A stretch of DNA of 42,854 bases, from positions 1 to 42,854 of IMG/VR virus record IMGVR_UViG_3300017605_001089, one strand, 5' to 3'. Positions 1 to 41,917 of this stretch are shown piece by piece. Position 1 is the first letter of the stretch, and each line of letters opens with the position of its first letter. Below the pieces are notes generated by a model. It had not been told where the DNA came from and searched no databases. It was given only the letters and a program-made list of their open reading frames with translations. The position numbers and the translations under genes were made by a program. Source of the DNA: a virus.

Positions 1-141
1 CGTGACGGGAACGGCTCGAGGCTGGCGCAGGCGCCTGTAACCCGTTGCTCTGGGCCGCGGTAGAGAATCGGCGAAAATAGTCGAAAAATACCCTTGCACG
101 GTTCGCGGGCCGGATGCTACATTTTGGTCGTCGCAGGGAAG
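1..141. repeat. Terminal direct repeat copy A, identical to 42714..42854 (wrap-around of a circular or circularly permuted genome)
   Basis: First 141 nt equal the last 141 nt base for base. It holds the last 40 nt (stop TAA 38-40) of the CDS starting at 42526 and most of promoter module P1. Confidence 0.95.
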
Positions 142-178
142 GGCCCGGCGGCAGGACTCGAAAGAAGGAGCGGACAAA
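61..178 (+). promoter_or_regulatory. Promoter-leader module P1
   Basis: Phased CGAAAA(A)TA A-tracts. -35 TTGCAC 94-99, 18-nt spacer ending TGC, -10 TACATT 118-123. Invariant GGGAAGGGCCC 136-146, SD GAAGGAG 164-170, ATG 179. Same architecture as four other sites. Confidence 0.7.
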
Positions 179-1198: not shown

Positions 1199-1211
1199 GC
1201 GGCCCCGGGAG

Positions 1212-1242
1212 GCGGGCGCCGCTAAATCGTTGCGGCGCCCGC
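1212..1242 (+). terminator. GC-rich hairpin (11-bp perfect stem, 9-nt loop) after the first early gene
   Basis: GCGGGCGCCGC (1212-1222) pairs with GCGGCGCCCGC (1232-1242). No U-tract. Confidence 0.5.
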
Positions 1243-1244
1243 AC

Positions 1245-1362
1245 TTCTAGAAAGGTCGAAAAAAGCCGAAAAATACCCTTGCGCCCGTGGGCGGAAACCT
1301 CTAGATTACTCGTGTCGCAGGGAAGGGCCCGGCGGCGAAACCTCGAAGAAGGAGACGAGAAA
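1245..1362 (+). promoter_or_regulatory. Promoter-leader module P2
   Basis: TCTAGAA plus phased CGAAAAA tracts. -35 TTGCGC 1279-1284, 17-nt spacer, -10 TAGATT 1302-1307. GGGAAGGGCCC 1320-1330, SD GAAGGAG 1348-1354, ATG 1363. Confidence 0.7.
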
Positions 1363-2193
1363 ATGACGAAGAGCACGGCGAAGGGCGCGGCGAAGTTCAC
1401 GGTTGAGGTTCAGGCGTGGTGCGGCAACGTGAAGCCCTTCTGCGCGCGCGTGGAGTGGACGGCTCCGAACGGCCGGGCGCGGGCGCAGTCCACCGGCTTC
1501 TGCAAGTCCGAAGGCCGCGCCCTCGCGGCCGGCCAGACGCTCCTCGCGAAGCTCGAGGCGCAGGACGCGCGCGAGCGCGCGGCCTACGAGGCGGCCTTCG
1601 ACGCGGCGCTGCTCGAGGCCGAGGCGCGCTACACGGCGGCGAACGCCGGCGCCGAGATCCCGGCCGAGCTTTCCGGCGGCCTGCCGCGGGCCGAGGCGCC
1701 CGCGGCGCCGGTCCGCCCGCTCACCATGACGGCGGACGAAGAGGCGCGGAACCGCGCGATCTCGACGGAGCAGGGCACGCTCGGCCGCACGTTCGCGGAA
1801 CTGGACGCCACGCGCCGCTCGCACGACGCGACGGTCGGCATGGGCGTCGCGGCCGTGAAGGAACTCGCCGCGCAGCGCGACGCGCTCTTCGCGGCCCTTC
1901 AGCTTTGCATGGCGACGGCGACGTGGAGCAGCGCGGACGCGGTGCCGGAGGCTTACACGCGGGCGCTCGCTCAGGCCCGCGCCGCGGTGCAGCGCTCCTT
2001 CGGCGTGAAGCCGCAGGCGACGCGGCTCTCGCTCCTCGACGTGGCGCGCGAGGGCGTCGAGTGGGCGCACCACTTCGAGCTTCACCTTCCGGCCGGGCAG
2101 GGCCACGGCCACTCGCGCGCCGGCCTGCTCCGTTTCATCGCCGAGGCCGGCGACACGATCCGCGCCCACGGCGGCCAGACGGTGCGGTCGTGA
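1363..2193 (+). CDS. Hypothetical early protein
   Basis: In-frame ATG directly after module P2. The part of listed ORF 496..2193 upstream of it is Arg/Gly-rich shadow sequence. Confidence 0.8.
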   Translation: MTKSTAKGAAKFTVEVQAWCGNVKPFCARVEWTAPNGRARAQSTGFCKSEGRALAAGQTLLAKLEAQDARERAAYEAAFDAALLEAEARYTAANAGAEIPAELSGGLPRAEAPAAPVRPLTMTADEEARNRAISTEQGTLGRTFAELDATRRSHDATVGMGVAAVKELAAQRDALFAALQLCMATATWSSADAVPEAYTRALAQARAAVQRSFGVKPQATRLSLLDVAREGVEWAHHFELHLPAGQGHGHSRAGLLRFIAEAGDTIRAHGGQTVRS

Positions 2194-2441
2194 GGCCGGC
2201 CGCGGTCCGCTCGCTCGTGGCGCTCGCCCGCAAGGGAGCGCTCGCGAAGGCCCCGCTCGAGCGCGAGGCGGAGAACCTGCAATGGATCCAAGACGAGGAG
2301 CGCGGGAAGTTCTTCACGCACCGGGGCGCGCAGTACCACGCGCTCCGCCGCGTCCTCGAGAAGGCCCGCGAACTGGACGAAGAGATCACGTACGCGCTCG
2401 GGCTTCACGACGCCGAGCAGGACGAAAGGCGGAAGGGATGA
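2190..2441 (+). CDS. Hypothetical protein
   Basis: GTG start in a GTGA overlap with the upstream stop. Sensible composition from that point on. Confidence 0.6.
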   Translation: MRPAAVRSLVALARKGALAKAPLEREAENLQWIQDEERGKFFTHRGAQYHALRRVLEKARELDEEITYALGLHDAEQDERRKG

Positions 2442-2683
2442 AGAAGACCGAAACCGTGACGCGCACGCTCGAGATCGCGCTCGAGGAGCCGGGCCCGTTC
2501 CTGCGCGTGCTCGTGCCGAACGAAGGGCCGCCGGCCGTGATCGTGAACGTGCGGACCTCGGGCCCGGGCGCGGTGGACTGCGGCCCGAGGCTCCTGCTCT
2601 TCCCGACGGCGGCCTCGGTGCGTGAAGCGGCCGAGGCGCTCCAAGTGGCCGCCGGCTACTTCGAGCGGGGCGAACTCCTGTGA
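2438..2683 (+). CDS. Hypothetical protein
   Basis: ATGA start/stop overlap, MKKTETV... product. Confidence 0.65.
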   Translation: MKKTETVTRTLEIALEEPGPFLRVLVPNEGPPAVIVNVRTSGPGAVDCGPRLLLFPTAASVREAAEALQVAAGYFERGELL

Positions 2684-2973
2684 GCCCGGCGTTCTCGGAC
2701 GTGTTCTTCTCCTCGGCCTCCGCCCATTGGGCGACGCCGGGGGCGCTGCTCGAGGCGCCCGAGGCCGCGCTCGCCGTGTTCCTGCTCCCGGCGCGGACGG
2801 ACACGCGCTGGTGGCACGAGCACGCATTGAAGGCCACCGAGATCCGCTTCCTGCGCGGGCGGCTCAAGTTCGGCGAGGCGAAGAACTCCGCGCCGTTCCC
2901 GTCCGTGCTGCTCATCTACCGAAACGAAACCCGACCCGAAACCCGACCCGAAACCCTGAAGGAGAACCGATGA
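2680..2973 (+). CDS. Dam-family (phage N6-adenine methyltransferase, PF05869-like) C-terminal fragment, probably catalytically dead
   Basis: LLPARTDTRWWHEHALKATEIRFLRGRLKFGEAKNSAPFPSVLLIY matches the conserved C-terminal half of the family as I remember it. The N-terminal half is absent and FFSS sits where NPPY should be. GTGA overlap start. Confidence 0.55.
   Translation: MSPAFSDVFFSSASAHWATPGALLEAPEAALAVFLLPARTDTRWWHEHALKATEIRFLRGRLKFGEAKNSAPFPSVLLIYRNETRPETRPETLKENR
2925..2956 (+). repeat. 12-bp tandem repeat CGAAACCCGACC, about 2.7 copies
   Basis: cgaaacccgacc cgaaacccgacc cgaaaccc read directly. It encodes the ETRPETRPET tail of the Dam fragment and ends 14 nt before the HTH gene ATG. 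Confidence 0.9.
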
Positions 2974-3290
2974 AGGCAACGACGCTGCAGCTTCTCCGCC
3001 TGAGCCTGAAGAGCCCGAACCTCCCGCCGCAGCCGACGCTGAAGGCGGTCGCCGAAGCCGCGGCCCTGAGCGCCGGCAACCTTAGCGGTTGGGAGCGCGG
3101 CGAGAAGTCGCTCGGCGCTCGCTCGCTCCTGACCATCTCCGCCCTCTACGGCAAGACGCCGGAGGCCCTCGAGGAACTCTTCGACCGGTGCCGGCTCGCG
3201 TGGCTCCTCGAGGAGACCGCCGCGGTGGAGGCGCGCATCAACCTGCGCTCGAAGCTCGCGCGCGAGAAGGGACGAAAGAAGAGTCGGTAA
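2970..3290 (+). CDS. XRE/Cro-CI-type helix-turn-helix DNA-binding protein
   Basis: TLKAVAEAAALSAGNLSGWERGEKSLGARSLLTISALYG fits the HTH_3 pattern. ATGA overlap start. Confidence 0.65.
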   Translation: MKATTLQLLRLSLKSPNLPPQPTLKAVAEAAALSAGNLSGWERGEKSLGARSLLTISALYGKTPEALEELFDRCRLAWLLEETAAVEARINLRSKLAREKGRKKSR

Positions 3291-3299
3291 CCTGCCGAA

Positions 3300-3315
3300 G
3301 CGATGCTAGTATCGC
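3300..3315. promoter_or_regulatory. 16-bp imperfect palindrome GCGATgCTAGtATCGC overlapping an extended -10-like TGCTAGTAT
   Basis: Arms GCGAT/ATCGC are perfect inverted repeats. GATGCTAG is the same string as the -10 region of the P modules. Confidence 0.4.
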
Positions 3316-3365
3316 CCCGCGCCCGAGCCCTCGGGCACATGGAACCCTCAGTCACGGAGGAGCAG

Positions 3366-4394
3366 ATGACGCAGCAGCAGCAGCAGTCGACCGCGCTCGA
3401 GAAGGCGCGGGAGCTTCCCGAGTGGGCCCTGCCGGTCGTGGGCCCGTTCGCAGATCCGAGCCGCTTCGAGCTTCTTCTCCCGGCCCTGCCGGTGAACTCG
3501 ACCCTCGGCTTCGGGCACGTCCCTTCGATCTCGCTCGTTCACGTTTCGCCGAACGTGCTCGACGGCGAAGTGTTCAAGGTCGGGAGCCGGCAGGAGAACG
3601 GGGCGTGGGTCGATCTCTTCGCCTACTCGAAGCCGGCGCTCTCGAAGATGGCCGGCGCCGCGGGGATCTCGATCAACACTCAGCGCGTGGACCGCGGCAC
3701 GAACAGGGACTACTGCGAAGTGAAGGCCGTCGGCGGGATGAAGAACGAGAGCGGCCAGTCGATCTTCCGCTCGGCGACGAAGGCGTTCGACATGGAGGAC
3801 GTCGCGGCGGAGGCGTGGAGGAACCGCGTCGCGCGCAACGACAAGGCGGACGCGAAGAAGAAGAAGACCGAGCCGCAGATGAAGCAGGACCACGCAGCGG
3901 AGATGACGGCGTTCCGGAAGCACTTGCTCCGGCGCACCGAGGCCGGCGCGATTACCGCAGTTATCCGGGAGCTTCTCGGGATCAAGGGCGCGCAAACCCG
4001 CGAGCAGATCGCGAAGCCGAAGGTGATCCTGCGCGTGGACTTCCGCCCGGACGCGAGCGACCCGGTGGTGAAGCGCTTCCTCCTCGAGCGCGCGGACGCC
4101 GCAACGATGGCGCTCTACGGGATCGGGCTCGGCGAGCGGACGAAGGCGCCGCACGGCGAGGCGGAAGTCATCCACGGTGACGACCCGGGGCCGGCGGCCC
4201 TGACGGCCGGATCGGAGGCCGCGGCCGCGGCGGAGCCCGAGGTTCCGGCCGAGGACTTCACGCGCCGCGTCTTCGAGGGCTTCGACGCGGTGGGCCTCGA
4301 CCTCGCCGAGCGCTCGCGCATCCTGACGGCGAGCGGCGGCGACATGCGGAAGGCCTACGACCTGCTCAACGAACTGGCGAACTCGGAAAGCTAA
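3366..4394 (+). CDS. Hypothetical protein (possible recombination partner of the downstream nuclease; function unproven)
   Basis: ATG 3366 preceded by GGAGGA. Alternative in-frame ATGs at 3303 and 3339. Good composition. No family recognised. Confidence 0.65.
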   Translation: MTQQQQQSTALEKARELPEWALPVVGPFADPSRFELLLPALPVNSTLGFGHVPSISLVHVSPNVLDGEVFKVGSRQENGAWVDLFAYSKPALSKMAGAAGISINTQRVDRGTNRDYCEVKAVGGMKNESGQSIFRSATKAFDMEDVAAEAWRNRVARNDKADAKKKKTEPQMKQDHAAEMTAFRKHLLRRTEAGAITAVIRELLGIKGAQTREQIAKPKVILRVDFRPDASDPVVKRFLLERADAATMALYGIGLGERTKAPHGEAEVIHGDDPGPAALTAGSEAAAAAEPEVPAEDFTRRVFEGFDAVGLDLAERSRILTASGGDMRKAYDLLNELANSES

Positions 4395-4401
4395 CCGGAT
4401 T

Positions 4402-4424
4402 GGGGCCGGCCTCGCGCCGGCCCC
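4402..4424 (+). terminator. GC-rich hairpin (9-bp stem, 5-nt loop)
   Basis: GGGGCCGGC ctcgc GCCGGCCCC, 8 nt after the stop at 4394. Confidence 0.45.
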
Positions 4425-4449
4425 GCTCACTGGAAGAGGAGAAGAGAAA

Positions 4450-7400
4450 ATGCGCGTGCTTCACTTTGCCGACCTGCACTTGGACGACTCCACGACGCCG
4501 AACTCTGAGCGGGCGATGGAGCAGCTTCTCGAGGCCGCGAAGCGTGAGCGGCCGGACCTGATCCTGAACGTTGGCGACCTCACGATGCGGCGCGGCCACC
4601 TTGCGCCGTGGGTCGCGTTCAGGCTTCGCCAGTTCCACGACGCGCTCGCCGAGATCGCGCCGACCATCGTGGTCGAGGGGAATCACGACCTCACCTACGA
4701 AGAGGGCCGCGCCGGGATGCTCTCCGGCGCGCTGCGCGAAAGCGGCGCCGCACCGGGCCGGCTCTTCGTGATCGAACGGCCCGAGGTCGTTCGCATCCCG
4801 GGCCTGCGCGACGTGGCGTGCCTCCCGTACCCTTCAAAGCTCCGGCTGGCCGCGGCGCGCGAGGGCTCGGGCCTGCCGACGAACGAAGCGGTGCAGGCCG
4901 CTCTGCTCGAGATCGTGCGCGGCCTCGCGCTCGCGTCCGGGCCCGGCGCCATCCTCGCGTTCCACGGCACGGTCGAAGGCGCGAAGGCCGGGACCGAGAG
5001 CATCATGGCGACCGAGATCGACGCGCTCCTGAAGCCCTCGGACATTCCCGCCGGCTTCGCGCGCGTGCTCTGCGGGCACATCCACCGCTACCAGACGATC
5101 CCGTGCGCGGACGGCCTGCCGCTCGCGACCTACTGCGGGAGCCCGGCGCCGCTTTCGTTCTCCGAGGAGAACTACGCGCACGGCTACATCCTCTGGACCT
5201 TCCCGGAAGATCCAGCGCTGATCGAGGCGGAAACCTTCGTGGAACTCGAGCCGGCGGAGCGGCTCCTGACCGTGGACATTCGCGAGGCCGGCATCGCGCG
5301 GCAGGAGGTCGACCCGCTGACGCTTCACGGGCCGTTCGACTCCGAGGGCGGGATCATCCTCACGGGCGAAGTGAGCCTGATCACGGTCGACCCGCGGCTC
5401 GAGGCGTTCGCGGCGAAGTGCCCGGGCGTCCTTCGCACGACCGGTCTCGCCGGCGTGTCCGTGCGCGTGCTGGCGACCGTGGGCCGGAACGAGGAGGGCG
5501 CGCGCGTGCGCGAACTGCTCGAGAAGGCGGCGCGCGATGCCGGCGCCGCGAAGGTGCGCGTGGTGCTCGAGCGGCTCTCGGACGACCTGACGGTCCCGCT
5601 CTCCGAGCGCGTGAAGCTCGAGGGCGACCTGAATGCGCTCCTCGACGTCTGGGCCGCGCGCGTCCCGGAGGTCGCCGCGAACCTCGAGGCCCTGAAGGCG
5701 AAGGCCGCCGGGCTCGAGTCGCTCCTGCCGTTCGAGGCGCACTCGAGCACGAACGCCGCGGAGTACCGGCTGCTCTCGCTCGAGGTCTCGAACTGGAAGA
5801 GCTTCCGCGCGGCGCCCACGCGCGTCGAGCTTGCGGACTGCGGCTCGCTCGTGGCGGTGGAGGGCGAGAACGCGAGCGGCAAAAGCAATCTCATGGAGGC
5901 CGAGGCCTTCGCGCTCTGGGGCCGCACGCTGCGCGGCCGGCAGACGCTCTCGGAACTCGTGCGGAAGGGCGAGGACCGCGCGAACGTGACGGCGGAGTTC
6001 GTGAGCGATGGCGAGCGCTGGAAGGTTTCGCGGTCGATCCGGATTCGCAAGGGCGGCGTCGGCGTGGCGGAACTGAGCCTCGCGAAGCTGCACAATCCGG
6101 TGAACGAGTTCGGGAACATGTCGCCCTTCGGCGAGTGGAAGCCGGCGGACAAGGGCACGGCCACGGAGACGCAGGCGTTCCTCGAGCTTCTCGTGGGCCC
6201 GCTCGACCTGTACCTCGCGACGCGCTACGCCTCGCAGGGGGACGTCGACCGGCTGCTCTCGCTCTCGCCGGCGGAACTGAAAACGCTCCTGCAGCGGGCC
6301 CTGAACATCGGCGCCTTCGAGGCCCGCGAGGCTATCGGCCGGGAGAAGCTCGGGGAGGCCGACGTTCTCGTGACGCGGCTCTTCGGCAAGCTCGGCGGGC
6401 TCGAGGCCGTGGCGGGCGACCCGGAGGCCCTGCGGGCCGACGTGGCCGGCGTGGAGGCAACCGCGGAGCTTGCCCGGATCGGGCTCGAGAACTGCGCCCG
6501 AACCCACGCGGCGCTCCGGGAGGCGCAGGCGGTGGCGCAGCAGGAGGAGACCCGGCTCATGGGCGTCGCTGCTCAGGTGAAGGCGATCAACCTGCGGTGC
6601 CGGACCGCGGACGAACGCGCCTCCGACCTGAGGCTCCGGGCGGCCGGCGAGGCTCGCCGGGCGGCCAGCGAGCGAGGCCCCGTGGACGACGCGGCGGAGG
6701 CGGAGAAGCTCCGGGCCGGGCTCGTGGACTTCGACGCCACGATCAAGGCCCGCGACGACGCGCGCGTGGAGCACGCCAGTCTGGTCGCGCTCTGCAATCA
6801 GGCGAAGCACGGCCTCGCCGAGCAGGTCGCGGCGCTGGACCGCAAGCGCACCGAGGCGGCCGCCCGGCTCGCGCTCGCCCGGGCTCAGGAAGGAAGCGAG
6901 ATCCGGATCGGCGCGGCGAAGCTCGAGAAGCTCAAGGCGGACGTCGCCACGATCCGCACGCTGGCGAAAGCGCAGGTCGATGCGGCGAAGGAGTCCGCGG
7001 CGCTGCTCGGCCGCGTGCCGTTCGGTGAGAAGTGCGCCGAAGCCGGCTGCGCGTTCGTGGCCGGCGCCGTGAAGGCGCGCGACACGCTCGAGGCGCTCGA
7101 GGCCAGCATGAACGGCAAGGTGGTCGAGGCCGAACAGCGGCTCGCCGAGGGGCAGGCGGCGCACCGGGACGCGCTCTTCGAGGCGTCCGAGAAGGTCCGC
7201 GTGGCGCTCGACGCCACGCTCCCGGCGGCCTCCGAGATGGAGGCTCGCGGCGTGGACCGCTGCTCGCTCGTGATGCGCGAGGCGACGGAGGCGGCGCGCT
7301 CCTCTGCGACCGTCGTGCTCGAACTCGAGGACCGGACGAAGGCGATGGAAGTCCTCCGGGACGCGCTCCGGAGCCTCGAGGCGGCCGGGGCCGCGCGCGA

Positions 7401-8232
7401 GGAGCGGGCCCGGGCGCTCGAGGCCTCGGCCGAGAAGCTCCGGGCGCAGGCGGGCGAGGCGGAGGGCGAGCGGGACCGGGCGCTGGCCGAACTGGCGGCC
7501 ATGCCGGCGCCGGACCTCGAGGCCTGCGCGGCGGCCACGGCGGCCGCCCGGGAGGCCGTCCGGACCGAGGCCGGGAACGAGGCCACGGCCCGGAAGGACC
7601 ACGAACTCCTGAGCGCGCGCCTCGCGCAGATGCGGGCCTCGCTCGAGCAGGCCGAGAAGGTGGCCGGTGAGATCGTGCGCACGAAGGCGGAGCACGCCGC
7701 GGCGGTGCGCGAAGTGGAACTGCTCGCCCTGTACGTTCGGGCGGTGGGCCGCGACGGCCTGCCGTTCCTCGTGCTCGAGCGCGCGGTGCCGGCGCTCGAG
7801 GCCCGGGCGAATCACTTCCTCGGCGAAGGCTCGGACCTCCGGGTCGCCATCGAGTCCGTCCGGGACTTGCAGAGCGGCGAGCAGCGGGCCGACGTGGTCG
7901 TCCGCTACCTGAACCGCTTCGGCGGCCACGAACTCGCGGCCGCTTCCGGCTTCGAGCGCGTGGCGCTCGGCTACGCGCTCCGGGCGGCGCTCTCGCAGGT
8001 TCAGGCCGAGGCGCACGGCGTCAAGGTGTCCCATTGGGTCGCCGACGAAGGATGGGGCGCCTTTGACGAGCGGAACCTGCTCCACGGCCAGCAGATGCTC
8101 CGCCGGCTGGCGGCGCAGTTCGAGCGCGTGTTCTTCGTGAGCCACGTCGGGGCGATCCGGGAAGTGGCCGAGACGCACCTTCGCGTCGTGCCGGACGCGG
8201 TGAACGGCTCGCGCCTTGAGACGCTCTCGTGA
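4450..8232 (+). CDS. Fused SbcD/Mre11-like metallophosphoesterase plus SbcC/Rad50-like coiled-coil ATPase (1260 aa)
   Basis: N-terminal phosphoesterase motifs: HFADLHLDD, GDL, GNHD, FHGTVEG, CGHIHRY. Walker A GENASGKS at 5863-5886. A coiled coil several hundred residues long (not measured). C-terminal SGFE signature, Walker B VADEG, and FFVSH. Confidence 0.85.
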   Translation: MRVLHFADLHLDDSTTPNSERAMEQLLEAAKRERPDLILNVGDLTMRRGHLAPWVAFRLRQFHDALAEIAPTIVVEGNHDLTYEEGRAGMLSGALRESGAAPGRLFVIERPEVVRIPGLRDVACLPYPSKLRLAAAREGSGLPTNEAVQAALLEIVRGLALASGPGAILAFHGTVEGAKAGTESIMATEIDALLKPSDIPAGFARVLCGHIHRYQTIPCADGLPLATYCGSPAPLSFSEENYAHGYILWTFPEDPALIEAETFVELEPAERLLTVDIREAGIARQEVDPLTLHGPFDSEGGIILTGEVSLITVDPRLEAFAAKCPGVLRTTGLAGVSVRVLATVGRNEEGARVRELLEKAARDAGAAKVRVVLERLSDDLTVPLSERVKLEGDLNALLDVWAARVPEVAANLEALKAKAAGLESLLPFEAHSSTNAAEYRLLSLEVSNWKSFRAAPTRVELADCGSLVAVEGENASGKSNLMEAEAFALWGRTLRGRQTLSELVRKGEDRANVTAEFVSDGERWKVSRSIRIRKGGVGVAELSLAKLHNPVNEFGNMSPFGEWKPADKGTATETQAFLELLVGPLDLYLATRYASQGDVDRLLSLSPAELKTLLQRALNIGAFEAREAIGREKLGEADVLVTRLFGKLGGLEAVAGDPEALRADVAGVEATAELARIGLENCARTHAALREAQAVAQQEETRLMGVAAQVKAINLRCRTADERASDLRLRAAGEARRAASERGPVDDAAEAEKLRAGLVDFDATIKARDDARVEHASLVALCNQAKHGLAEQVAALDRKRTEAAARLALARAQEGSEIRIGAAKLEKLKADVATIRTLAKAQVDAAKESAALLGRVPFGEKCAEAGCAFVAGAVKARDTLEALEASMNGKVVEAEQRLAEGQAAHRDALFEASEKVRVALDATLPAASEMEARGVDRCSLVMREATEAARSSATVVLELEDRTKAMEVLRDALRSLEAAGAAREERARALEASAEKLRAQAGEAEGERDRALAELAAMPAPDLEACAAATAAAREAVRTEAGNEATARKDHELLSARLAQMRASLEQAEKVAGEIVRTKAEHAAAVREVELLALYVRAVGRDGLPFLVLERAVPALEARANHFLGEGSDLRVAIESVRDLQSGEQRADVVVRYLNRFGGHELAAASGFERVALGYALRAALSQVQAEAHGVKVSHWVADEGWGAFDERNLLHGQQMLRRLAAQFERVFFVSHVGAIREVAETHLRVVPDAVNGSRLETLS

Positions 8233-8738
8233 AGGCGCTCGCGCCTCAGGACGCCGGCCGGCTCCCGTTCTCGAACGAGACGACCTCGCTCGAGGCGGCG
8301 ATGGACCCGCGCGCGCGCGCCGGCGCCGCGAGTCAGATCGTCAGGATTCGGGCGCTCATGCTCGCGCGTGGGCACTATGGCCTGACGCACGAGGAGATCG
8401 CGAACGCAACCCGTATCGGCATCCGGCAGGTCTCGACGCGCGTCCGGCGGCTCGTGCTCGAGGGCCTCGCGCGCGATACCGGCCGCACGCGGACCGGAAC
8501 GTCCGGAAGAGCGGCGCGAGTGTGGGAGCCGTTCGACGGGCCGCCGCTCACGAAGGAGAAGCAAACGCACGGCAGGATCGCCGCGGCCGTGCGCGAGACG
8601 TGGAGGAAGGCGGCGGCAATGACGCGAGAGAAGGTCTTCGGCGAATCGGTCGAGAGCTTCACGGTCCTGACCGGGCTCGCCGAGGCGTTCGAGGCGAAAG
8701 CGAAGCATCTCACGGAGGGAGGCACGGATGGCGAGTGA
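8229..8738 (+). CDS. Winged-helix-like DNA-binding protein (putative)
   Basis: GTGA overlap start. The GLTHEEIANATRIGIRQVSTRVRRLVLEGL segment resembles a MarR-like wHTH. Confidence 0.55.
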   Translation: MKALAPQDAGRLPFSNETTSLEAAMDPRARAGAASQIVRIRALMLARGHYGLTHEEIANATRIGIRQVSTRVRRLVLEGLARDTGRTRTGTSGRAARVWEPFDGPPLTKEKQTHGRIAAAVRETWRKAAAMTREKVFGESVESFTVLTGLAEAFEAKAKHLTEGGTDGE

Positions 8739-9264
8739 GGCGAAGTCGGCGCTCGAAGCGTGGGAACGTTCGGTCGAGCAGGTGAAGCTCGCGACGGGCG
8801 CGCTTCAGGCGGCCCTGAAGCTCATGGAGGCGGCGAGCACCACCGTCGTTCACGACGCATGGGATACCGTGTGCAGCGCGCGGGCGGCGCTGCGCTCGGC
8901 GGTGGCCGAGGAGGGCACGCGCTTCTCGGTGATCGAAGACCACAAGCGGCAGACCACGATGGACCTCGACGGGAAGGAGCGCGAGCAGGCGGCCGGCCGC
9001 GGCGCGGTGCGCGGTGAAGGCCGCGTCCATCCTCAGGAGCCGCTGAAGCTGCTCCCGCCCGGGGCGCCGGCTACGGCGGCCGAGGAGGAACTCGAGGATC
9101 CCGACAAGATCGTGGACGACGACGAGGACGACGAAGCGGCCGGCGAAGGTGAAGGCGCGCCGGCCGGCGAGGCTGCACCCGAAGACGCCGGCGAGGGAGA
9201 GCCGGACGAAGAAGAGGCCGGCGACGAACCCGCGGAAGCGGAAGGGGAGGACGAGAAGGAATGA
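8728..9264 (+). CDS. Hypothetical protein with a poly-acidic C-terminal tail of about 70 residues
   Basis: ATG after GGAGGGAGG. The C-terminus is nearly all D/E/G/A/P. Confidence 0.7.
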   Translation: MASEAKSALEAWERSVEQVKLATGALQAALKLMEAASTTVVHDAWDTVCSARAALRSAVAEEGTRFSVIEDHKRQTTMDLDGKEREQAAGRGAVRGEGRVHPQEPLKLLPPGAPATAAEEELEDPDKIVDDDEDDEAAGEGEGAPAGEAAPEDAGEGEPDEEEAGDEPAEAEGEDEKE

Positions 9265-9443
9265 TCTCGCTCGGGCAGAAGGTGAAGATGAAGACGACCG
9301 GCATCGCCGGCGTCGTTGCGGCGCGCGCGGAGTACCTGCACGGCACGCCGCGCATCGTGGTCGAGTACGCCACGACGAACGGGAAGCACACGGCCGAGTG
9401 GCTCAATGAGGAAGAAGTCGTTCCGGTCGAGGCGGAGGGCTAG
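9261..9443 (+). CDS. Small hypothetical protein (60 aa)
   Basis: ATGA overlap, good composition. Confidence 0.6.
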   Translation: MISLGQKVKMKTTGIAGVVAARAEYLHGTPRIVVEYATTNGKHTAEWLNEEEVVPVEAEG

Positions 9444-9447
9444 AGGC

Positions 9448-9984
9448 ATGACGCTCGCGGCCGTGTTCTTCGCCCTGATCTTCCACGCGCCCGGTGATAG
9501 CGTGGCGGGCGTGGGCGTGGAGCCGGTCGCGAGCTACCAAGCGGAACGTAGAGTGCCCGGGGGCGCATGGGCTCCGGCAACGCTCTACGGCGGCCCCTCG
9601 GTGGCGTCCGGGCCGGCAGTCCCGAACGCTCCGGGGGCGCCCGACTCCGCGTGGGCGTCGCTCTCGAACGCGCCGGCCGCGTGGCTCGCCGGCGGCGAGG
9701 AGTACCGCCTGCGCTCCGTGGACCGCGCCGGCAACCGCTCAAGCTGGTCGAACTTCGTCGTCGTGGTGGCCGGGCCCGACACGGTCTGGACTATCGCCGG
9801 CGTGAAGGCGTTCGACCGGTGGGCGAAGGTGGGAACGTTCGCAGGCTGGAAGCGCGACACCGGGGACACGCTCCCGGGCGCTCGCGCCGTTCACTTCGAG
9901 GAAGTCCAACGCGCGCACCGTGCGACGCTCTGCGGGATCTTCGGATTCTGGGCGCTGCGCGGCCTGCGCGAACCGTGTCCATAG
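9448..9984 (+). CDS. Hypothetical protein with a hydrophobic N-terminus (possible exported protein)
   Basis: ATG after [20 protein letters not shown] leader. The [16 protein letters not shown] motif resembles Ig/FN3-like surface domains. Confidence 0.55.
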
Positions 9985-9992
9985 GAGGACCG

Positions 9993-10208
9993 ATGCTTGT
10001 GCTCACCCGACGGATCGGGGAAACGATCACGATTGGCGACGACATTCGGATTACCGTGCTCGAGATTCGCAGCGGGCAGGTGAAGGTCGGGCTCGAGGCG
10101 CCACGCGACCGGCGCATCGTGCGCGAGGAACTGCTCTCGAGCGAAGAGGCGGCCGCCCCGCGCGCCGCGGCGAAGCGCGGCCACGCGCGCTCCGAGTTCA
10201 CGCCTTGA
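9993..10208 (+). CDS. csrA: CsrA/RsmA-family RNA-binding translational regulator
   Basis: [47 protein letters not shown] aligns residue for residue with E. coli CsrA ([47 protein letters not shown]). The L4 and R44 equivalents are kept. AGGAGG lies 4 nt upstream. Confidence 0.9.
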
Positions 10209-11419
10209 GCGACTCCTACCGGATCGCGAAGGAGCTTGAGCCGTTCGCGCGCGACCTCGGCACGCTGACGCTCGACCCGGAGAACGCGCGCGAGCACGAC
10301 GACGCGAACCTGCTCGACATAGCGAACTCGCTCAAGACTTACGGCCAGCAGAAGCCGGTCGTCGTGAACTCGGCCGGGAAGATCGTCGCCGGCAACGGCA
10401 CGGTTCGCGCCGCGCTCTCGCTCGGCTGGACGAAGCTCGCGTGCGTGACGTTCGACGGCAAGCTCGAGGACGAGGAAGGCTTCGCCATCGCCGACAACCG
10501 CTCGGCCGAGCGCGCAACGTGGAACGAAGCGAGGCTCGGACCCGTGTTCGAGCGCTACCGGGCGGCCGGCCTGAACCTCAGGGAGCGGCTCGGCTTCAAA
10601 GAGAACGAGGCGCAGAGCATCCTCGTGCGGCTCGGCCGTGGGCAGGTGAAGGAGGACGCCGGCGCCACGAGCGCGGAGGCCGAGCGCTTCCGCGTTCAGG
10701 CCGGCGACCTCTGGCTCCTCGGCGACCATCGCCTGCTCTGCGGGGACATGACGGACGAGGCCACGCTCGCGCGGCTCATGGGCGAGGAGCGGGGCGACCT
10801 CGTGTTCACCGACCCGCCCTACGGCGTGAACGTGACGGGCGCCGGCGGCTCGGCGCTGCACGGGGATATCTCCTTTACGCTGATCCCGCTGCTCTTCGCG
10901 AAGCTGGACGAGTACGCGAAGCCGAAGGCGTGGCTCTACCTCTGCGGCGGGCAGTCGAACATGCTGCTCTACTCGAAGCTCTTCGAGCAATACTTCCGCG
11001 ACCTGCCGCGCGTGATCGTGTGGCACAAGTCCGGGCCGCCGGTGCTCCGCCGCGTGGGCTACCACTCGAGCTTCGAGCTTATCTACTACGGCTTCCGTGC
11101 CGGCTCCGGGGACCATTGGTTCGGCGGCCGCGGCGCCGAGGAATGCTCGGACGTTTGGTCGATCCCGACCGAGCGCGGCGGCGAGAGGTTTCACCCGACG
11201 CAGAAGCCGGTCGAAGTGCCGGCGCGCGCGATCACGAACTCGTGCTCGCCCGGCGGGATCGTGGTCGACCCGTTCGCCGGCTCGGGCTCGACGCTGATCG
11301 CGGCCGAGCAGCGCAACCGCCGGTGCTACGCGATGGAACTGGACCCGAACTACTGCTCGCGAATCGTCGCGCGGTGGGCAAAGTTCACGGGAGGAACCCC
11401 GAGCCGTGCCGGGGCCTGA
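10205..11419 (+). CDS. ParB-like nuclease domain fused to an N6/N4 DNA methyltransferase (DPPY type)
   Basis: The only start available is TTG, in a TTGA overlap with the csrA stop. ParB N-terminal pattern ([10 protein letters not shown]..., GNGTVRAA). Then [18 protein letters not shown] and DPFAGSGST motifs. Confidence 0.8.
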
Positions 11420-11732
11420 AGGCGACAACCTCGAGCGCTTCCTGTTCCTCGTGGAAGGCATGGACGCGGCGAGCTACCGGCGCCTCGTCTCGCTCTGGGC
11501 GGTGGCGGCGCAGGCGAGCAGCACGAAGAGGCTCGAGCGGTGGGCGCAAGTCTCCGGCCTGCCGCTATCGGAGATCCGCCGGCTCTCGGTCCCGCTGCTC
11601 GCCGGCGGGATCTGCAAGCCGGACGGCACAGTCGAGGAGCAGGCGCGGCAGATCGTTCGCGGCGGGTTCGTCGCGGCGCTCGAGGCGCTCGAGGCGAGCA
11701 AGCCGAAGGGGAGGAAGTCCAGTGGGACGTGA
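11406..11732 (+). CDS. Hypothetical protein
   Basis: GTG start 10 nt after GGAGGA. Alternative ATG at 11460. Confidence 0.5.
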   Translation: MPGPEGDNLERFLFLVEGMDAASYRRLVSLWAVAAQASSTKRLERWAQVSGLPLSEIRRLSVPLLAGGICKPDGTVEEQARQIVRGGFVAALEALEASKPKGRKSSGT

Positions 11733-11919
11733 GAAGGTGGTGCGCTCGGCGGTGAAGTTCGAGAAGCAGAAGCTCGAGGACGTGGACGCGGCCATCGAGC
11801 GGACGCTCCCGATGCGGGCGCCCGGCGTGAGCCACGCGCGCATCCGGATCTTCGTCAACATGACGCATTCCGACTGGCTCGTGCTCTGCGGCGCGGCCGT
11901 GGAGGGCCTGAAGAAATAG
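11722..11919 (+). CDS. Small hypothetical protein (65 aa)
   Basis: GTG start about 7 nt after GGGGAGG. The rest of listed ORF 10441..11919 is shadow sequence. Confidence 0.5.
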   Translation: MGREKVVRSAVKFEKQKLEDVDAAIERTLPMRAPGVSHARIRIFVNMTHSDWLVLCGAAVEGLKK

Positions 11920-11923
11920 GACG

Positions 11924-11952
11924 TTGACACCGGCCGCGGACGGAGCAATGTT
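11924..11952 (+). promoter_or_regulatory. Putative sigma70-like promoter TTGACA-N17-AATGTT
   Basis: Perfect -35 hexamer at 11924-11929 and a weak -10 at 11947-11952. It heads a non-coding stretch of about 170 nt. Confidence 0.4.
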
Positions 11953-12122
11953 CGTGGCCTGCGCGGAAGAGGCGCAACGGCGAGCCCAACGAAGAGAAAT
12001 GCCGCAGCGGGCCCGCGCCGAGATCTTGAGAAGGTTCGCGACGGACCGCGACACGCTTTCGCCGGCGTGCTCTTCCCTTCTCGACTCGGCCGGGCTCCAT
12101 GCGGCGTCACGGAGGAAGAGCA

Positions 12123-12524
12123 ATGGCGAACGGCACGCACGGGAAACACGTTGAGACCTCGCGCGACATGATCGTCCCGAACGGCGCGCACCCGGCGACC
12201 GTGGTGGCGGCCCACGCGAAGTTCGCGGCGCTGAGCACGGAGGAGCGGCAGGAGGTCGTCCGCTCCATGTTCAAGCCCGGCGCGCACGCGAAGCGCTTGC
12301 GCGAGTTCGCGGAGTGGCTCGAGAAGCTCGAGGCCGGGAACTACCGGCGCCCGGACCTCGCGACGATGGACCTCCTCGAGAGCCTCTACGGCCGCGTCGG
12401 CATCATGGCGTCGGACGCCGCGGAGGCGTTCGGCCTGCGCGGCGAGGTCGAGGCGTACTGGAAGAGCGTCGATGAAGCGAGCCCGGGCACGGCCGCCCCC
12501 GAGGCGACCGGCCCGGGAGCCTGA
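12123..12524 (+). CDS. Hypothetical protein
   Basis: ATG after GGAGGAAGAG. Confidence 0.7.
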   Translation: MANGTHGKHVETSRDMIVPNGAHPATVVAAHAKFAALSTEERQEVVRSMFKPGAHAKRLREFAEWLEKLEAGNYRRPDLATMDLLESLYGRVGIMASDAAEAFGLRGEVEAYWKSVDEASPGTAAPEATGPGA

Positions 12525-12525
12525 C

Positions 12526-13338
12526 ATGGCTCGCGAGGACCGCCCTCCGGCGTTCCTCTTCGAGCCGGCCCGCTTCCTGAACGACGAAGCCGTGCAGGGC
12601 ATGGACCCGTCCGAGCTTGGCGCCTACGCCGCGCTCTTCTGCGCGTGCTGGTCGCAGCCGGAGGTCGGCGTGCTTCCGGACGACGACCGCATCCTGAGCT
12701 TCCTCGCCCGGTGCTCGCCGGAGGAGTGGGCCGCCTACTCGCCGGCGGTCCGCCGCGCCTTCAAGCCCGGCACCCGGGACGGCCGGCCCGTGCTGATCCA
12801 AGCCGGGCTCGTGGCAACCGCTCGAGCTACCGCGCGCCGCTTCGCTGAGCGCTCGAAGGCGGGGCGAGAAGCCGCTAACGCACGATGGCAGAGCGGACAA
12901 GATGCGCCCGGCAATGCGGACGCAATGCAAGTGAAGTGTAGTGTAGTGAAGGGTAGAGAAGTTCAGAATCCTAACCCCTCGCTCGCGCTCGGGCTCGAAG
13001 GTGACGGGAACCCCGTCGCGTTCACGTCCGACGCCTCGTGGGCAACGCTCTGGGATTCCTTCTGGGCGGCGTGGCCGTCTGGCATCCGTGGGAAGCCCGG
13101 GAAGGCCGAGGCCCGGGAGATCTGGGGCCGGCTGAAGCCGAAGGGCCGGCCGCTCTTCGACCTGATCATGGCCGGGCTCGAGCGCTGGAAGTCCTCGAGC
13201 GAGTGGCAGAAGAACGGCGGAGAGTTCATCCCAGACGCGAAGAAGTGGCTCAGGCGCCAGCGCTGGCAGGACGAAGTCGGTCCCGGCGCCACGGGCTCGA
13301 GCGCGCAGGCGTGGGCGAAGGAAGGGGACGGCGAATGA
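12526..13338 (+). CDS. DUF1376 (YdaU-like) replication-organiser-like protein
   Basis: N-terminus FLFEPARFLNDEAVQGMDPSELGAYAALFCACWSQPEVGVLPDDDRILSFLA fits the DUF1376 pattern. It has two domains joined by a low-GC linker. Confidence 0.6.
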   Translation: MAREDRPPAFLFEPARFLNDEAVQGMDPSELGAYAALFCACWSQPEVGVLPDDDRILSFLARCSPEEWAAYSPAVRRAFKPGTRDGRPVLIQAGLVATARATARRFAERSKAGREAANARWQSGQDAPGNADAMQVKCSVVKGREVQNPNPSLALGLEGDGNPVAFTSDASWATLWDSFWAAWPSGIRGKPGKAEAREIWGRLKPKGRPLFDLIMAGLERWKSSSEWQKNGGEFIPDAKKWLRRQRWQDEVGPGATGSSAQAWAKEGDGE

Positions 13339-13997
13339 ACAGGTCGGACTTCGCGAACGAGTTCAAGCGGCTGGCCGACGGCTACGGCGCGCCGGAGCTT
13401 CACCGGAACCGGCTCGAGGCTCTCTGGCTCGAGTTCCGGGCCCTGACCCTCGAGGGCCTGAAGGCCGGCGTCGACCTCGCGCTTCAGGGCGACCGCTACC
13501 CTTCCGCCGGCATCCTGCGGAAGTGCCTCGAGGACGGGCAGGACGTCGCGCGCCGGCGCGGCGCCTCGAGCGCGTCGGGCCCGCGGCCCCCGGGCGGGTT
13601 CGACGTGTTCGGGACGTGGAACCCGGACGCCTTCGGCGACAACGACCTGACACGGTTCGTCCGCTACCTGATCGCCCGCAAGCGCGAGGATCTCCTCACG
13701 CCGCGCGAGGCGGCGGAACTCATCCGGGCGCACCCGGAACTCGAGGCCCCGTTCCTCGCCGCTCTGGACTCGTGGTCGACCGCGGTGACCTACGCTTCAT
13801 GGCAGGGCGTCTACTTCGCGAACTCGGCGCAGGCGTCCGTCGTGTTCGCCGGCCAGTCCCGCCCGACGTGGCTCACCATGCCGGAGCGGTGGACGAAGGT
13901 CTGCGAGATGGCGGACTCGAGGAACTACGTTCCGGACCTGAGCCGGCACCGGTGGGACCGCGAGCGTCAGGCCCCGGCGCAGGAGCTTCCGCTTTGA
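13335..13997 (+). CDS. Hypothetical protein (replication-module neighbour)
   Basis: ATGA overlap start. Confidence 0.65.
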   Translation: MNRSDFANEFKRLADGYGAPELHRNRLEALWLEFRALTLEGLKAGVDLALQGDRYPSAGILRKCLEDGQDVARRRGASSASGPRPPGGFDVFGTWNPDAFGDNDLTRFVRYLIARKREDLLTPREAAELIRAHPELEAPFLAALDSWSTAVTYASWQGVYFANSAQASVVFAGQSRPTWLTMPERWTKVCEMADSRNYVPDLSRHRWDRERQAPAQELPL

Positions 13998-14626
13998 GCC
14001 TCCCGGCCCCGTACTACGACGCCGGCGGCGTCACGATCTACCACGGCGACGCGCTCGCGCTCCTGCCGCTGCTCGAGTGCGACGCCGTCCTGACCGACCC
14101 GCCCTACGGCATCGGCTACAAGCCGCTGCGCGGCTCGAACGGCTCGAAGCTCTGGGGCGCCGAGACCGTGCGCGGCGACGACGCGCCGTTCGACCCGGCT
14201 CCCGTGCTCGCGCTGGACGTGCCGTCGATCCTCTGGGGCGCGAATAACTACCGCTCGAACCTGCCGGACTCGGCCGGCTGGCTCGTGTGGGACAAGGTGC
14301 CGGACGGGATCCGGGACGGCTTCACCTACTCGCACGCTGAACTCGCGTGGACGAACCTCTTCGGCCGCGTCCTGAAGTACGCGGAGAACTGGCAGGGAAG
14401 CTCGCGCTCGGGCGAGGGCTTCCACCACCCCACGCAGAAGCCCGTCTCGCTCATGCGCTGGTGCCTCGAGCTTCTCCCGCCCGGGACCGCGCTCGACCCG
14501 TACTGCGGCTCGGGCTCCACGCTGGTCGCCGCGAAGGCCCTCGGCCGCCGAGCTATCGGCGTCGAGATCGAGGAGCGCTACTGCGAGGTCGCCGCGCGCC
14601 GGCTCGCTCAGGAGGTTCTCCTGTGA
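13994..14626 (+). CDS. N6/N4 DNA methyltransferase (DPPY type)
   Basis: TTG start in a TTGA overlap. VLTDPPYGI, FHHPTQKPVS and DPYCGSGST motifs. Confidence 0.8.
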   Translation: MSLPAPYYDAGGVTIYHGDALALLPLLECDAVLTDPPYGIGYKPLRGSNGSKLWGAETVRGDDAPFDPAPVLALDVPSILWGANNYRSNLPDSAGWLVWDKVPDGIRDGFTYSHAELAWTNLFGRVLKYAENWQGSSRSGEGFHHPTQKPVSLMRWCLELLPPGTALDPYCGSGSTLVAAKALGRRAIGVEIEERYCEVAARRLAQEVLL

Positions 14627-14946
14627 ACCTCGAAGAACCGCCCAAGCCCGGGCCCGGATGGCGCACCGTATGGCTCTGCTACGGCGTGGAACCGAACCGG
14701 TTCGTCGCAATGGTCCCGCCGAGCTACCGGTTCCCGTTCGCGCTGGTCGTTCCCGTGGAGAGCCTCGAGGGCGACCCGGTGGACAATCGCGCAGCCGGCA
14801 TGCGTGGCGAACTGTGCAACCTCGAGGTCTTCATCCGGGACGACGAACTCACGGCGCTGCACGGACTACGCGAGAAGGTTTTCTACACGTTCGACCGGAT
14901 GGCTCGGCGAACCCTGACGCCGCGCGAGCGCGCGGACCTTCAGTGA
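14623..14946 (+). CDS. Hypothetical protein
   Basis: GTGA overlap start. Confidence 0.6.
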   Translation: MNLEEPPKPGPGWRTVWLCYGVEPNRFVAMVPPSYRFPFALVVPVESLEGDPVDNRAAGMRGELCNLEVFIRDDELTALHGLREKVFYTFDRMARRTLTPRERADLQ

Positions 14947-14957
14947 GGGAGGGAGAA

Positions 14958-15530
14958 ATGGCGAAGCGCAGCGTGACAAGCTCTGGACAAAAGCTCCACG
15001 AATCCGCCCCGGCTCGCGGGCTGGCGAGGACGCCGGGCTGGAACGAGTACGCGCAGCGCGTCCGGGGCGAACTCGAGTACCTGAACGGGAAGGCCCCGAG
15101 CCTGACCGTTCCCGGCTACGACAACCGCGGCCAGCGGCACGTTCGCAACGATGGCGAGCGGCTCTCGGTGGAGCCGGCTCCGAAGCGCCGGGGCGCGACC
15201 GCGCTGAACCCTCGTTTCGTGGCTCAGGGCTCGGGCTCGAGGCGGTGCTCGATTTGCGCTGGACCGCACGCGGAGTACCGGTGCCCGATCCCGCCGGCGG
15301 AGAAGGCGCCCGCGGTGCTCGGCCTGCTCTCGGACCGGCAGGAGACGGCGCCGGCGCCGGCGAGCTACTGCGGGCGCGGCCGCGTGCTCGCGCTCCCGCC
15401 CGGGGCGTTCGGTTCGGACCTCGAGCGAGTGGGCCGGCTGGCGAAGCGGAAGCGGACGCGCGAGAACCTCGACGGCATGGACGCGCTCATCGCCGGCGCG
15501 CTCATGGGCGCGAAGCGGCGGCGCCGGTGA
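14958..15530 (+). CDS. Hypothetical protein with a CCHC knuckle-like motif
   Basis: ATG after GAGGGAGGGAG. Contains CSICAGPHAEYRC (C-x2-C-x3-H-x4-C). Confidence 0.65.
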   Translation: MAKRSVTSSGQKLHESAPARGLARTPGWNEYAQRVRGELEYLNGKAPSLTVPGYDNRGQRHVRNDGERLSVEPAPKRRGATALNPRFVAQGSGSRRCSICAGPHAEYRCPIPPAEKAPAVLGLLSDRQETAPAPASYCGRGRVLALPPGAFGSDLERVGRLAKRKRTRENLDGMDALIAGALMGAKRRRR

Positions 15531-15868
15531 GCACGCTCAGGGAGAAAGGCCGGCAGGAGTGGACCTCCTACGACAACGGCCTCGGCACGATCAACGCCGG
15601 GAACTTCCAGCGGATCGCGGACGCCTGCGAGAAGATGGCGGTGAACTTCCAGAGCATGACCGTCGCGCTCGAGGCGTCCCGGGAGGAAGTGAAACGCCTG
15701 CGCGAGCGGGCCGCACGGCTCGAGCGCAGGCTCCGGGCTCAGAAGGCGGCGACCACGCGCGCGAAGCGGGGACGCGTGCCTCGGCTCTTCGGGCGGTGGA
15801 AGCGCGAGGTCTCGAAGTTCGAGCGCGCCATCGCGAAGCGGGACCGGCTGGCGAAACGTGGTCGTTGA
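15527..15868 (+). CDS. Hypothetical basic coiled-coil protein
   Basis: GTGA overlap start. Confidence 0.6.
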   Translation: MSTLREKGRQEWTSYDNGLGTINAGNFQRIADACEKMAVNFQSMTVALEASREEVKRLRERAARLERRLRAQKAATTRAKRGRVPRLFGRWKREVSKFERAIAKRDRLAKRGR

Positions 15869-15892
15869 ACTCGAACAGGAAGGGAGGGAGTC

Positions 15893-16018
15893 TTGGCCGC
15901 GCTGGAAAGGGCGCTGCAAGCGCTCGCGAACGCTCCGCCGGCGGTGCTGCTCCTCGCAGCCGTGCTGGTCGGCGCCGCGTTCCTCTGGGCACTCGGTAGG
16001 TTGCTGAAGGTGGACTGA
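15893..16018 (+). CDS. Small single-pass membrane protein (41 aa), not in the ORF track
   Basis: TTG start 3-4 nt after GGAAGGGAGGGAG. Hand translation gives LAALERALQALANAPPAVLLLAAVLVGAAFLWALGRLLKVD. It fills an otherwise empty gap. Confidence 0.45.
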   Translation: MAALERALQALANAPPAVLLLAAVLVGAAFLWALGRLLKVD

Positions 16019-39501: not shown

Positions 39502-39698
39502 CGGGCCCTCCCGTCCGCGGCCGCGAAAGCCGCCTCCCAAGACGAACCCTCGCCGTGGATCTCGAAGCCCTTCGCTCCCCATTCCCCGACCTGATACGCG
39601 CGCGCGCCGTCGTTCCCGCCGGCGTGGTGGACCTCCACGCGACCGAACGCGCGACCCCAACGGAGCCGCGCCTCCTCGAGAGCCTGAGCGCGGGTCAC
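39498..39698 (-). CDS. Small hypothetical protein (66 aa)
   Basis: GTGA overlaps at both ends. The part of the listed ORF upstream of the GTG is Arg-rich shadow sequence. Confidence 0.5.
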   Translation of the reverse strand: MTRAQALEEARLRWGRAFGRVEVHHAGGNDGARAYQVGEWGAKGFEIHGEGSSWEAAFAAADGRAR

Positions 39699-40167: not shown

Positions 40168-40194
40168 CGCCATTCTCCTTCTCGGTGAGAGTGC

Positions 40195-40219: not shown

Positions 40220-40226
40220 GGCGCTG

Positions 40227-40701: not shown

Positions 40702-40705
40702 ACCC

Positions 40706-41911: not shown

Positions 41912-41917
41912 CAGCGC

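Follow-up and report, generated by a model that had tools for sequence, protein, structure and literature searches.

A CsrA-family gene overlapping a ParB-methyltransferase gene in an uncultivated high-GC phage, and a 5' RNA hairpin of its early leaders that is probably a separate element

CsrA binds exposed GGA motifs at or near Shine-Dalgarno (SD) sequences, and E. coli CsrA represses its own translation. In phages, csrA genes have been catalogued in Pseudomonas F116 and phi297 (the 'RsmM' type), in Vibrio phages, in the Burkholderia Bcep22-like JC1 and DC1 and in E. coli PTXU04, and they are functionally almost untouched; the one published knock-down phenotype is the reduced plaque size of PTXU04 (CRISPRi-ART 2025, PMC11879866). 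A survey that urged loss-of-function tests found csrA in 30 of 2517 phage genomes (1.2%), mostly as Pseudomonas 'RsmM' types (Sobrero & Valverde 2020, PMC7366521), and our tblastn search matched 81 GenBank phage records. In JC1 the gene lies between the portal and capsid genes and its product may be virion-associated (PMC9144972). The F116 homologue (locus L123, 3501-3872; 123 aa), labelled 'transcriptional regulator' in GenBank, consists of a CsrA domain plus an extension and is encoded in the early operon, downstream of a CI-like repressor and upstream of an exonuclease. Here we analyse the csrA gene of the virus record IMGVR_UViG_3300017605_001089 from IMG/VR, whose 42,854 nucleotides are called the window throughout. 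Like F116, this phage carries its csrA homologue in an early operon near an exonuclease; unlike the catalogued phages, it belongs to an uncultivated, high-GC lineage with no close cultured relative, and its csrA overlaps a ParB-methyltransferase gene by 4 nt. The initial annotation had proposed that this CsrA acts on five early leaders of the phage itself; in the literature we found no paper proposing or showing the repression by a phage CsrA of the phage's own early leaders.

The predicted csrA gene has an ATG start, the SD sequence AGGAGG and a TGA stop. Its 71-aa product matched the Pfam CsrA family (PF02599) with 77.8 bits against a cut-off of 27 (E 6e-22), residues 1-49 covering positions 1-49 of the 53 of the model, and gap-free PDB matches to RsmE/CsrA were obtained at 1e-12. 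Alignment to RsmE (2jpp), P. aeruginosa RsmA and E. coli CsrA (1y00) required no gap over residues 1-48/54, which bears out both the homology to CsrA/RsmA and the near-colinearity with E. coli CsrA put forward at the outset. As Mercante and colleagues reportedly found in 2006, the residues of CsrA involved in RNA binding and regulation are L2, L4, R6 and R7 of beta1 together with V40, V42, R44 and I47 of the beta5/helix region. In the phage protein L2, L4, R6, R7, R44 and E46 are identical, so that the L4 and R44 equivalents named in the initial annotation are indeed present, and the changes V42 to I and I47 to L are conservative; on comparison in E. coli numbering, we judged that the required residue set is kept. 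The protein is of the same domain and length class as cellular CsrA, RsmE and RsmA and retains their MLxLTRR N-terminus, R44 and E46; it differs from the cellular proteins in being phage-encoded, in an identity of at most 63%, in the substitutions V40 to R and H43 to V and in a 20-aa unconserved tail. The gap-free alignment to solved dimers suggests an interdigitated homodimer with two RNA-binding surfaces. Together, these comparisons identify the predicted product of positions 9993-10208 as a bona fide CsrA-family protein.

A close relative of the phage, ENA NODE_82 (34.9 kb; loci L025, L026 and L121), showed the same gene string as the window, formed by an SbcCD-like protein of 1266 aa, four small open reading frames (ORFs), a 178-aa ORF, a 71-aa CsrA and a 422-aa methyltransferase. 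Neighbouring proteins are 68-94% identical between the two phages, and the CsrA proteins 63% overall and about 73% in the core. The ratio of nonsynonymous to synonymous substitution rates (dN/dS, Nei-Gojobori) was 0.35 for codons 1-50 and about 1 for codons 51-71; therefore the CsrA core is under purifying selection, and the protein can be described as a core of residues 1-48 followed by an unconstrained tail of residues 51-71. The Ala/Arg-rich C-terminal extension highlighted earlier is thus present in the window, but it does not stand as a conserved feature, as the tail of the relative (NAVREAASSGHGRDEQRS) has a different composition and this segment shows the dN/dS of about 1. The proposed coupling to the methyltransferase gene was confirmed: the csrA stop overlaps the TTG start at 10205 by 4 nt (TTGA), and in the relative the corresponding overlap is GTGA, with the methyltransferase N-terminus conserved from that codon. 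On the other side of csrA, the TAG stop of the upstream gene (9982-9984) falls within the csrA SD (AUAGGAGG).

The order of genes in the methyltransferase region is common to L025/L026/L121 and to two distant relatives, L114 and L115, which were reached through homology to the 342-aa protein encoded at 3366-4394. At the corresponding position both contain a divergent CsrA-like ORF (L114 13265-13588, 108 aa; L115 9030-9326, 99 aa) that matched Pfam CsrA across the entire domain with an E of 0.0014 each, at 19 bits and hence below the curated threshold. These proteins show 27-30% identity and share a C-terminal extension of about 50 aa (…Y(N/T)P…A(M/L)N…W…); that of L114 keeps MLVLTRKRGE...REEL, that of L115 lacks R6/R7, and the two may represent a repurposed CsrA fold. 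The L115 ORF lies immediately upstream of the methyltransferase gene, and that of L114 precedes a 341-aa ORF, a candidate methyltransferase gene, which is truncated where the contig ends. Because it is kept in such distant relatives, a CsrA-fold gene upstream of the methyltransferase is an old, fixed feature and not a recent moron. In the window, csrA sits in a conserved DNA-metabolism gene string, probably delayed-early, and its fixed position in a core operon despite divergence argues for a phage-internal role, at least in part. With csrA at a fixed place in a core operon and in translational coupling with a DNA methyltransferase gene, with relatives that span canonical to strongly diverged CsrA folds and with an early leader set that is small and well-defined, this lineage offers a clean setting for the study of phage CsrA.

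The existence of five shared early leader modules, on which the proposal of CsrA targets was founded, held up, since all five exact copies of the box GGGAAGGGCCC (four on the + strand and one on the - strand; Table 1) sit in a common promoter and leader module. With one mismatch allowed, this sequence gave 8 matches against 2.1 expected, a number that no shuffle reached. The module consists of CTAGA, an A-tract, CCCTTG(C/A)NC (-35), a variable spacer of 17-18 nt and a TG-extended TANNNT (-10), followed after about 6 nt by GTCGCAGGGAAGGGCCCGGCGGC, GAAAC, a purine-rich SD and ATG; owing to a terminal overlap of the assembly, the first module is present twice in the window. An identical box within the same module is also found ahead of the corresponding genes in L026/L121 and in a further locus, L112. 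Exact and gapped scans with the module pattern found nothing in IMG/VR or GTDB genomes, and the only JGI metagenome hit (L028) was discarded as a chance match within a PP2C/SpoIIE-type coding sequence. A simple promoter/terminator scan, uninformative for a GC-rich genome, returned no consensus promoters, even at the five modules, and no + strand terminators in 1-16000. The genes behind the leaders are without assigned function, as is typical of phage early genes: Pfam and PHROGs gave nothing informative for ten early-region proteins except a Zn-ribbon/DnaJ-CXXC-like motif, and no N-like, RegA-like or other RNA-binding candidate was found among them.

All five leaders fold into the same hairpin, which starts at about the expected transcription start and in which the box forms a 9-bp stem with a WWGGG loop. 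In an alignment of 10 copies, of which the window supplied five, L121 four and the mosaic phage L109 one, 85.6% of the cells of the 9-bp stem were paired and five of the nine pairs showed compensatory changes; none of 500 shuffles matched the observed covariation score, and slid registers were 30-47% paired. The stems rely on G-U wobbles, which make them strand-specific (sense only); this points to an RNA element, and the reading as a DNA operator or palindrome was rejected. Searching for the stem plus the WWGGG loop recovered exactly the five leaders on both strands of 42.7 kb and exactly four early-region sites in L121, and a covariance model built from the copies found just those copies plus one in L112. 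The conserved alignment positions were G13, G15, G18-20 and C21, that is, the closing pairs and the loop GGG, and not the GGA. One L121 copy (region 6300-6372), with the loop UAGGG followed by GAAAC and an SD, lies at the position corresponding to the 41094 module of the window and is without a recognisable -35/-10 upstream, which implies that the WWGGG element may also occur within operons. At an L114 promoter, a GGGAAGGGC match was weighed as a possible box without hairpin and rejected, given that about one such 8-mer is expected by chance in this locus and that the covariance model misses it.

The WWGGG hairpin was found at early leaders only, has no Rfam family and occurs in two canonical-CsrA lineages plus one phage of unscored csrA content; we consider it probably a new RNA motif of this phage group, which may be cis-regulatory, separate from the CsrA question, and useful as a marker of early transcription units in these uncultivated phages. 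Stabilising stem-loops at the 5' terminus are known from the hairpin of the E. coli ompA 5' untranslated region and from the T7 phi10 leader, where the stem-loop starts at +1. The WWGGG element is similar in that a GC-rich hairpin is predicted at or a few nt from the 5' end, ahead of an unstructured purine-rich leader and a strong SD; unlike those cases, its loop and closing pairs are invariant across paralogues and orthologues, which would be unneeded for a pure stabiliser. It also recalls the boxB of lambda N/nut, in that a short hairpin with a purine pentaloop closely follows early promoters; however, its loop is not GNRA-like, its predicted place is +1 and not tens of nt downstream, and no N-like protein was identified among the early-region proteins with Pfam/PHROGs. 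In addition, the three near-matches to a boxA-type pattern, fewer than expected by chance, all lie away from the leaders, and without a boxA there a lambda-type nut site is unlikely. The hairpin would most likely be a 5'-terminal stem-loop at about +1 of each early transcript, mRNA-stabilising or regulatory, whose invariant loop would be read by some partner, the box itself probably not being a CsrA site. Together with the conserved csrA/CsrA-like gene upstream of the methyltransferase, this covariation-supported motif is the by-product of most use of our analysis.

As to the function of the phage protein, we lean towards an account in which the CsrA dimer would bind exposed GGAs at or near SD sequences and modulate translation, while the box hairpin would be a separate element. 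The best-fitting sites would be exposed SD-type GGAs, among them that of the translation-initiation region (TIR) of csrA itself, where the hairpin GUCC[AUAGGA]GGAC is the minimum free energy (MFE) structure, with a frequency of 0.78 in a 34-nt context. Given the 4-nt overlap, the csrA initiation site would also govern the output of the methyltransferase gene, and further targets may be other phage mRNAs as well as host mRNAs, the latter being equally plausible. If CsrA does act on phage transcripts, this would be a new case in which a phage puts a host global regulator to use in its own temporal programme.

Several observations weigh against this account. In a 56-nt fold of the relative, the 4-bp stem with a CAUAGGA loop appeared in the centroid and not in the MFE structure. 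Hairpins with GGA in the loop and stems of at least 4 bp were present in 15 of 60 TIRs (7.8 per kb), for which reason the csrA-leader hairpin was dropped as a statistically special feature, and because such hairpins are common in TIRs, autoregulation would rest on family precedent and not on statistics. In the early leaders, CAGGGAAG resembles the CARGGAUG core in three of the five; the loop and inner stem do not vary, which implies a sequence-specific reader, and the phage CsrA is the sole recognisable RNA-binding protein; and the hairpin is present in both canonical-CsrA lineages (window and L121) and not in L114 or L115. The transcription starts are deduced from promoter geometry only, the stem base lying 6-7 nt past the -10 hexamer in all promoter-linked copies, which fits +1. 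Finally, the best cellular matches of the protein, at 63% identity or less, are scattered across many phyla and point to no host.

It is possible, though we regard it as rather doubtful, that CsrA acts mainly on host mRNAs (those for defence, carbon storage, motility or biofilm) as an extra CsrA that cannot be titrated, phage mRNAs not being specific targets; if it does act on host mRNAs, this would bear on how phages rewire host post-transcriptional control. Such a hijack of the host has been proposed for CsrA genes of mobile elements (PMC7366521; PMC11879866), and Rsm/Csr controls CRISPR-Cas in Serratia (PMC8450108). The canonical RNA-binding residues of the phage protein agree with this role, as does the lack of a phage-encoded antagonist RNA, since neither a CsrB-type Rfam match in the window or L121 nor a GGA-dense non-coding region was found; a FliW-like Pfam match was also lacking among the proteins scanned, a subset of the ORFs. 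On the other hand, no host could be assigned from the CsrA or large terminase (TerL) matches: the closest cellular CsrA proteins (42-63% identical) come from Entotheonella, Syntrophales, Planctomycetota, Microbacterium and Pseudomonas, and for TerL the identity to actinophage and halovirus terminases does not exceed 36%. Furthermore, csrA does not behave as a moron but is coupled within a core operon, and its position is kept despite divergence that includes the loss of R6/R7 in L115.

The mechanism proposed in the initial annotation, in which a CsrA dimer would bridge the box GGA and the SD GGA in the five leaders and shut off early translation at the early-to-middle switch, appears unlikely to us. 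It would be analogous to T4 RegA, a phage-made translational repressor whose binding sites are the initiation regions of numerous early mRNAs as well as that of its own mRNA; the analogy is one of function only, the RegA fold being unrelated and its sites AU-rich and located at the start codon. The 22-32 nt spacing given for the two GGAs was correct (30, 30, 22, 22 and 32 nt), and it falls within the range for dual-site CsrA binding reportedly described by Mercante and colleagues in 2009. The bridging model is also favoured by the CARGGAUG likeness, by the specific reader that the hairpin implies and by its occurrence only where CsrA is canonical, and since csrA follows the early promoters on their strand and no terminator is recognisable in the interval, a delayed negative feedback would be possible.

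The structure of the leaders nevertheless speaks against it. Both G's of the box GGA are stem nucleotides, with a P(unpaired) of 0.00-0.02 in all five leaders (paired with P of at least 0.98), whereas the SD GGAs are largely open, and forcing NNGGAN open costs 6.0-8.3 kcal/mol at the box against 0.1-2.6 at the SDs. The nucleotide 5' of GGGA, which would provide the preferred A(N)GGA context, belongs to the stem too; there A occurs only as an A-G mismatch and C or U where it is paired, and the upstream A of A(N)GGA, which is thus not conserved, is absent in two of the five leaders. Two hairpin copies keep the stem and an xxGGG loop without any GGA (L121:6337, GGGGUAGGGCCU; L109:7113, GCGAUGGGCGC), so the box is probably not a hairpin-presented CsrA site. 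The two-GGA layout, which had been taken as a CsrA signature, turned out to be generic. The + strand has 23.2 GGA per kb; for the 55 remaining genes, the 50-nt upstream regions contain a mean of 1.93 GGA, and in 28 of the 55 a pair of GGA is separated by 10-63 nt. Nor do the leaders belong to the GGA-dense windows, the top ones of which are coding. In comparison with glgC/cstA/pgaA-type targets, the leaders have an exposed SD GGA, a paired box GGA and a motif that is not above genomic background. A covariance model found no WWGGG hairpin in 24 IMG/VR csrA-carrying phage loci or in F116, and the co-occurrence of hairpin and canonical CsrA amounts to one contrast at best, because the members of each pair are closest relatives, leaving two close relatives against two others with no independent contrast. 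Structure, conservation and statistics, as predicted from these genomes, therefore disfavour the early leaders as CsrA targets.

We give a small chance to the idea that the CsrA fold has been repurposed as a dedicated regulator or partner of the ParB-methyltransferase or the DNA-metabolism module, and is not a general GGA-binding regulator. This would explain the same position upstream of the ParB-methyltransferase in the window, L121, L115 and probably L114 despite the 27-30% identity, along with the extension shared by L114 and L115 and the missing R6/R7 of L115; but the window protein is canonical and short and has all key RNA-binding residues, and csrA is located elsewhere in JC1 (between portal and capsid genes, PMC9144972) and in F116 (early operon, no adjacent methyltransferase). 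An equally slim prospect is that CsrA has co-evolved with the WWGGG hairpin and would recognise it in a non-canonical manner, either by the GGG of the loop and the closing pairs or once it has partly melted, in combination with the SD GGA, giving a RegA-like timed shut-off, or a stabilisation, of all early transcripts, with the methyltransferase co-regulated via the csrA initiation region. That the five abundant leaders serve as a distributed, CsrB-like decoy titrating host CsrA, also raised initially, is very improbable, for even though their promoters are strong, similar and multiple and every leader contains 2-4 GGA, exposure is limited to the SD-type GGAs, multi-hairpin GGA loops are lacking, GGA density is not above background, no CsrB/RsmY/RsmZ-type Rfam match was found, and encoding CsrA while sponging host CsrA would be illogical unless their specificities differ.

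Table 1. Positions of csrA, its neighbour and the early modules in the window, and of the hairpin copies in related loci
Feature	Position	Strand	Basis or details
csrA, 71-aa CsrA/RsmA-family RNA-binding protein (predicted)	9993-10208	+	Pfam, PDB alignments, syntenic orthologue P0002 at 63% identity, dN/dS
csrA translation-initiation region, candidate autoregulatory site	9977-9990	+	Hairpin GUCC[AUAGGA]GGAC, GGA in hexaloop over SD
ParB_N + N6/N4 DNA methyltransferase gene	10205-11419	+	Pfam N6_N4_Mtase 6.7e-24, ParB_N 8e-4
Early module 1	64-181	+	A-tract, -35 TTGCAC 94-99, TG-extended -10 TACATT 118-123, SD, ATG 179
Early module 1, hairpin	130-152	+	Box 136-146; bases 1-141 repeated at 42714-42854
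Early module 2	1249-1365	+	Hairpin 1313-1337, box 1320-1330, ATG 1363
Early module, minus strand	40602-40715	-	Hairpin 40629-40659, box 40639-40649, ATG 40604; divergent from 40706-40808
Early module	40706-40808	+	Hairpin 40768-40786, 7-bp continuous stem GCUCGGG/CCCGGGC, box 40772-40782, ATG 40806
Early module	41022-41132	+	Hairpin 41086-41112, box 41094-41104, ATG 41130
Hairpin copy, L121	5735-5757	-	
Hairpin copy, L121	5870-5888		
Hairpin copy, L121	6333-6351		
Hairpin copy, L121	8143-8167		
Hairpin copy, L109	7109-7127		
Hairpin copy, L112	1264-1284		

The window is an uncultivated circular tailed phage of a high-GC lineage. Its ends share an exact direct overlap of 141 nt, from which we deduce a circularly closed assembly, and the genome is probably complete at a unique length of 42,713 bp. 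The GC content is 70% and nearly all genes are on the + strand; they encode, among others, TerL, a portal protein with a Mu-F domain, an HK97-type capsid protein, a minor tail protein and an Amidase_2 endolysin. No tRNA genes were found in the window, and Rfam at a permissive threshold gave zero matches in the window and L121. Megablast of 25 kb of the window against GenBank phages returned just a 65-nt terminase match and no annotated relative, and the 345-aa ORF at 28561-29598 had neither a Pfam nor a GenBank phage match. A 1260-aa fusion of an SbcD-like metallophosphoesterase and an SbcC/SMC-like ATPase (4450-8232) is 77% identical in the relative and was present in all relatives found. Besides the methyltransferase gene with the ParB_N domain that follows csrA, a second N6/N4 DNA methyltransferase is encoded at 13994-14626; an additional Dam-family (PF05869) gene was observed in the early region of L121 (9164-9604), the overall picture being one of heavy investment in DNA methylation.

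Two further hairpins are worth mentioning. Between gene 1 and the second promoter module, positions 1199-1250 form the hairpin GGGCGCCGC-taaatcgtt-GCGGCGCCC, a possible intrinsic terminator that lacks a U-run. The Zn-ribbon-like gene is followed, directly behind its stop, by a GC-rich perfect hairpin (GGGCCCCGGG-atctg-CCCGGGGCCC; 41912-41960) without a U-tract; it is kept, with changed stem sequences, in L112 340-372 and L026 1644-1690, and could be a terminator-like or 3'-stabiliser element.

The sole minus-strand genes of the window form a block at 38929-40604 of four ORFs that match no family. The block is driven from the minus-strand promoter module and points away from the early genes of the + strand; a role in lysogeny or host takeover can perhaps be envisaged for it. 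No integrase or helix-turn-helix (HTH) repressor was found among the window proteins scanned. In the relatives L114-L120 an HTH_3/HTH_31 gene lies upstream of the homologue of the 342-aa protein. In L113, positions 600-720 show a homologue of the small gene at 42526-42750 followed by an opposite-strand tRNA-like sequence (identified by reading) and then by unrelated small ORFs; this region may be a prophage-chromosome junction, and its layout hints that some of the relatives are temperate.

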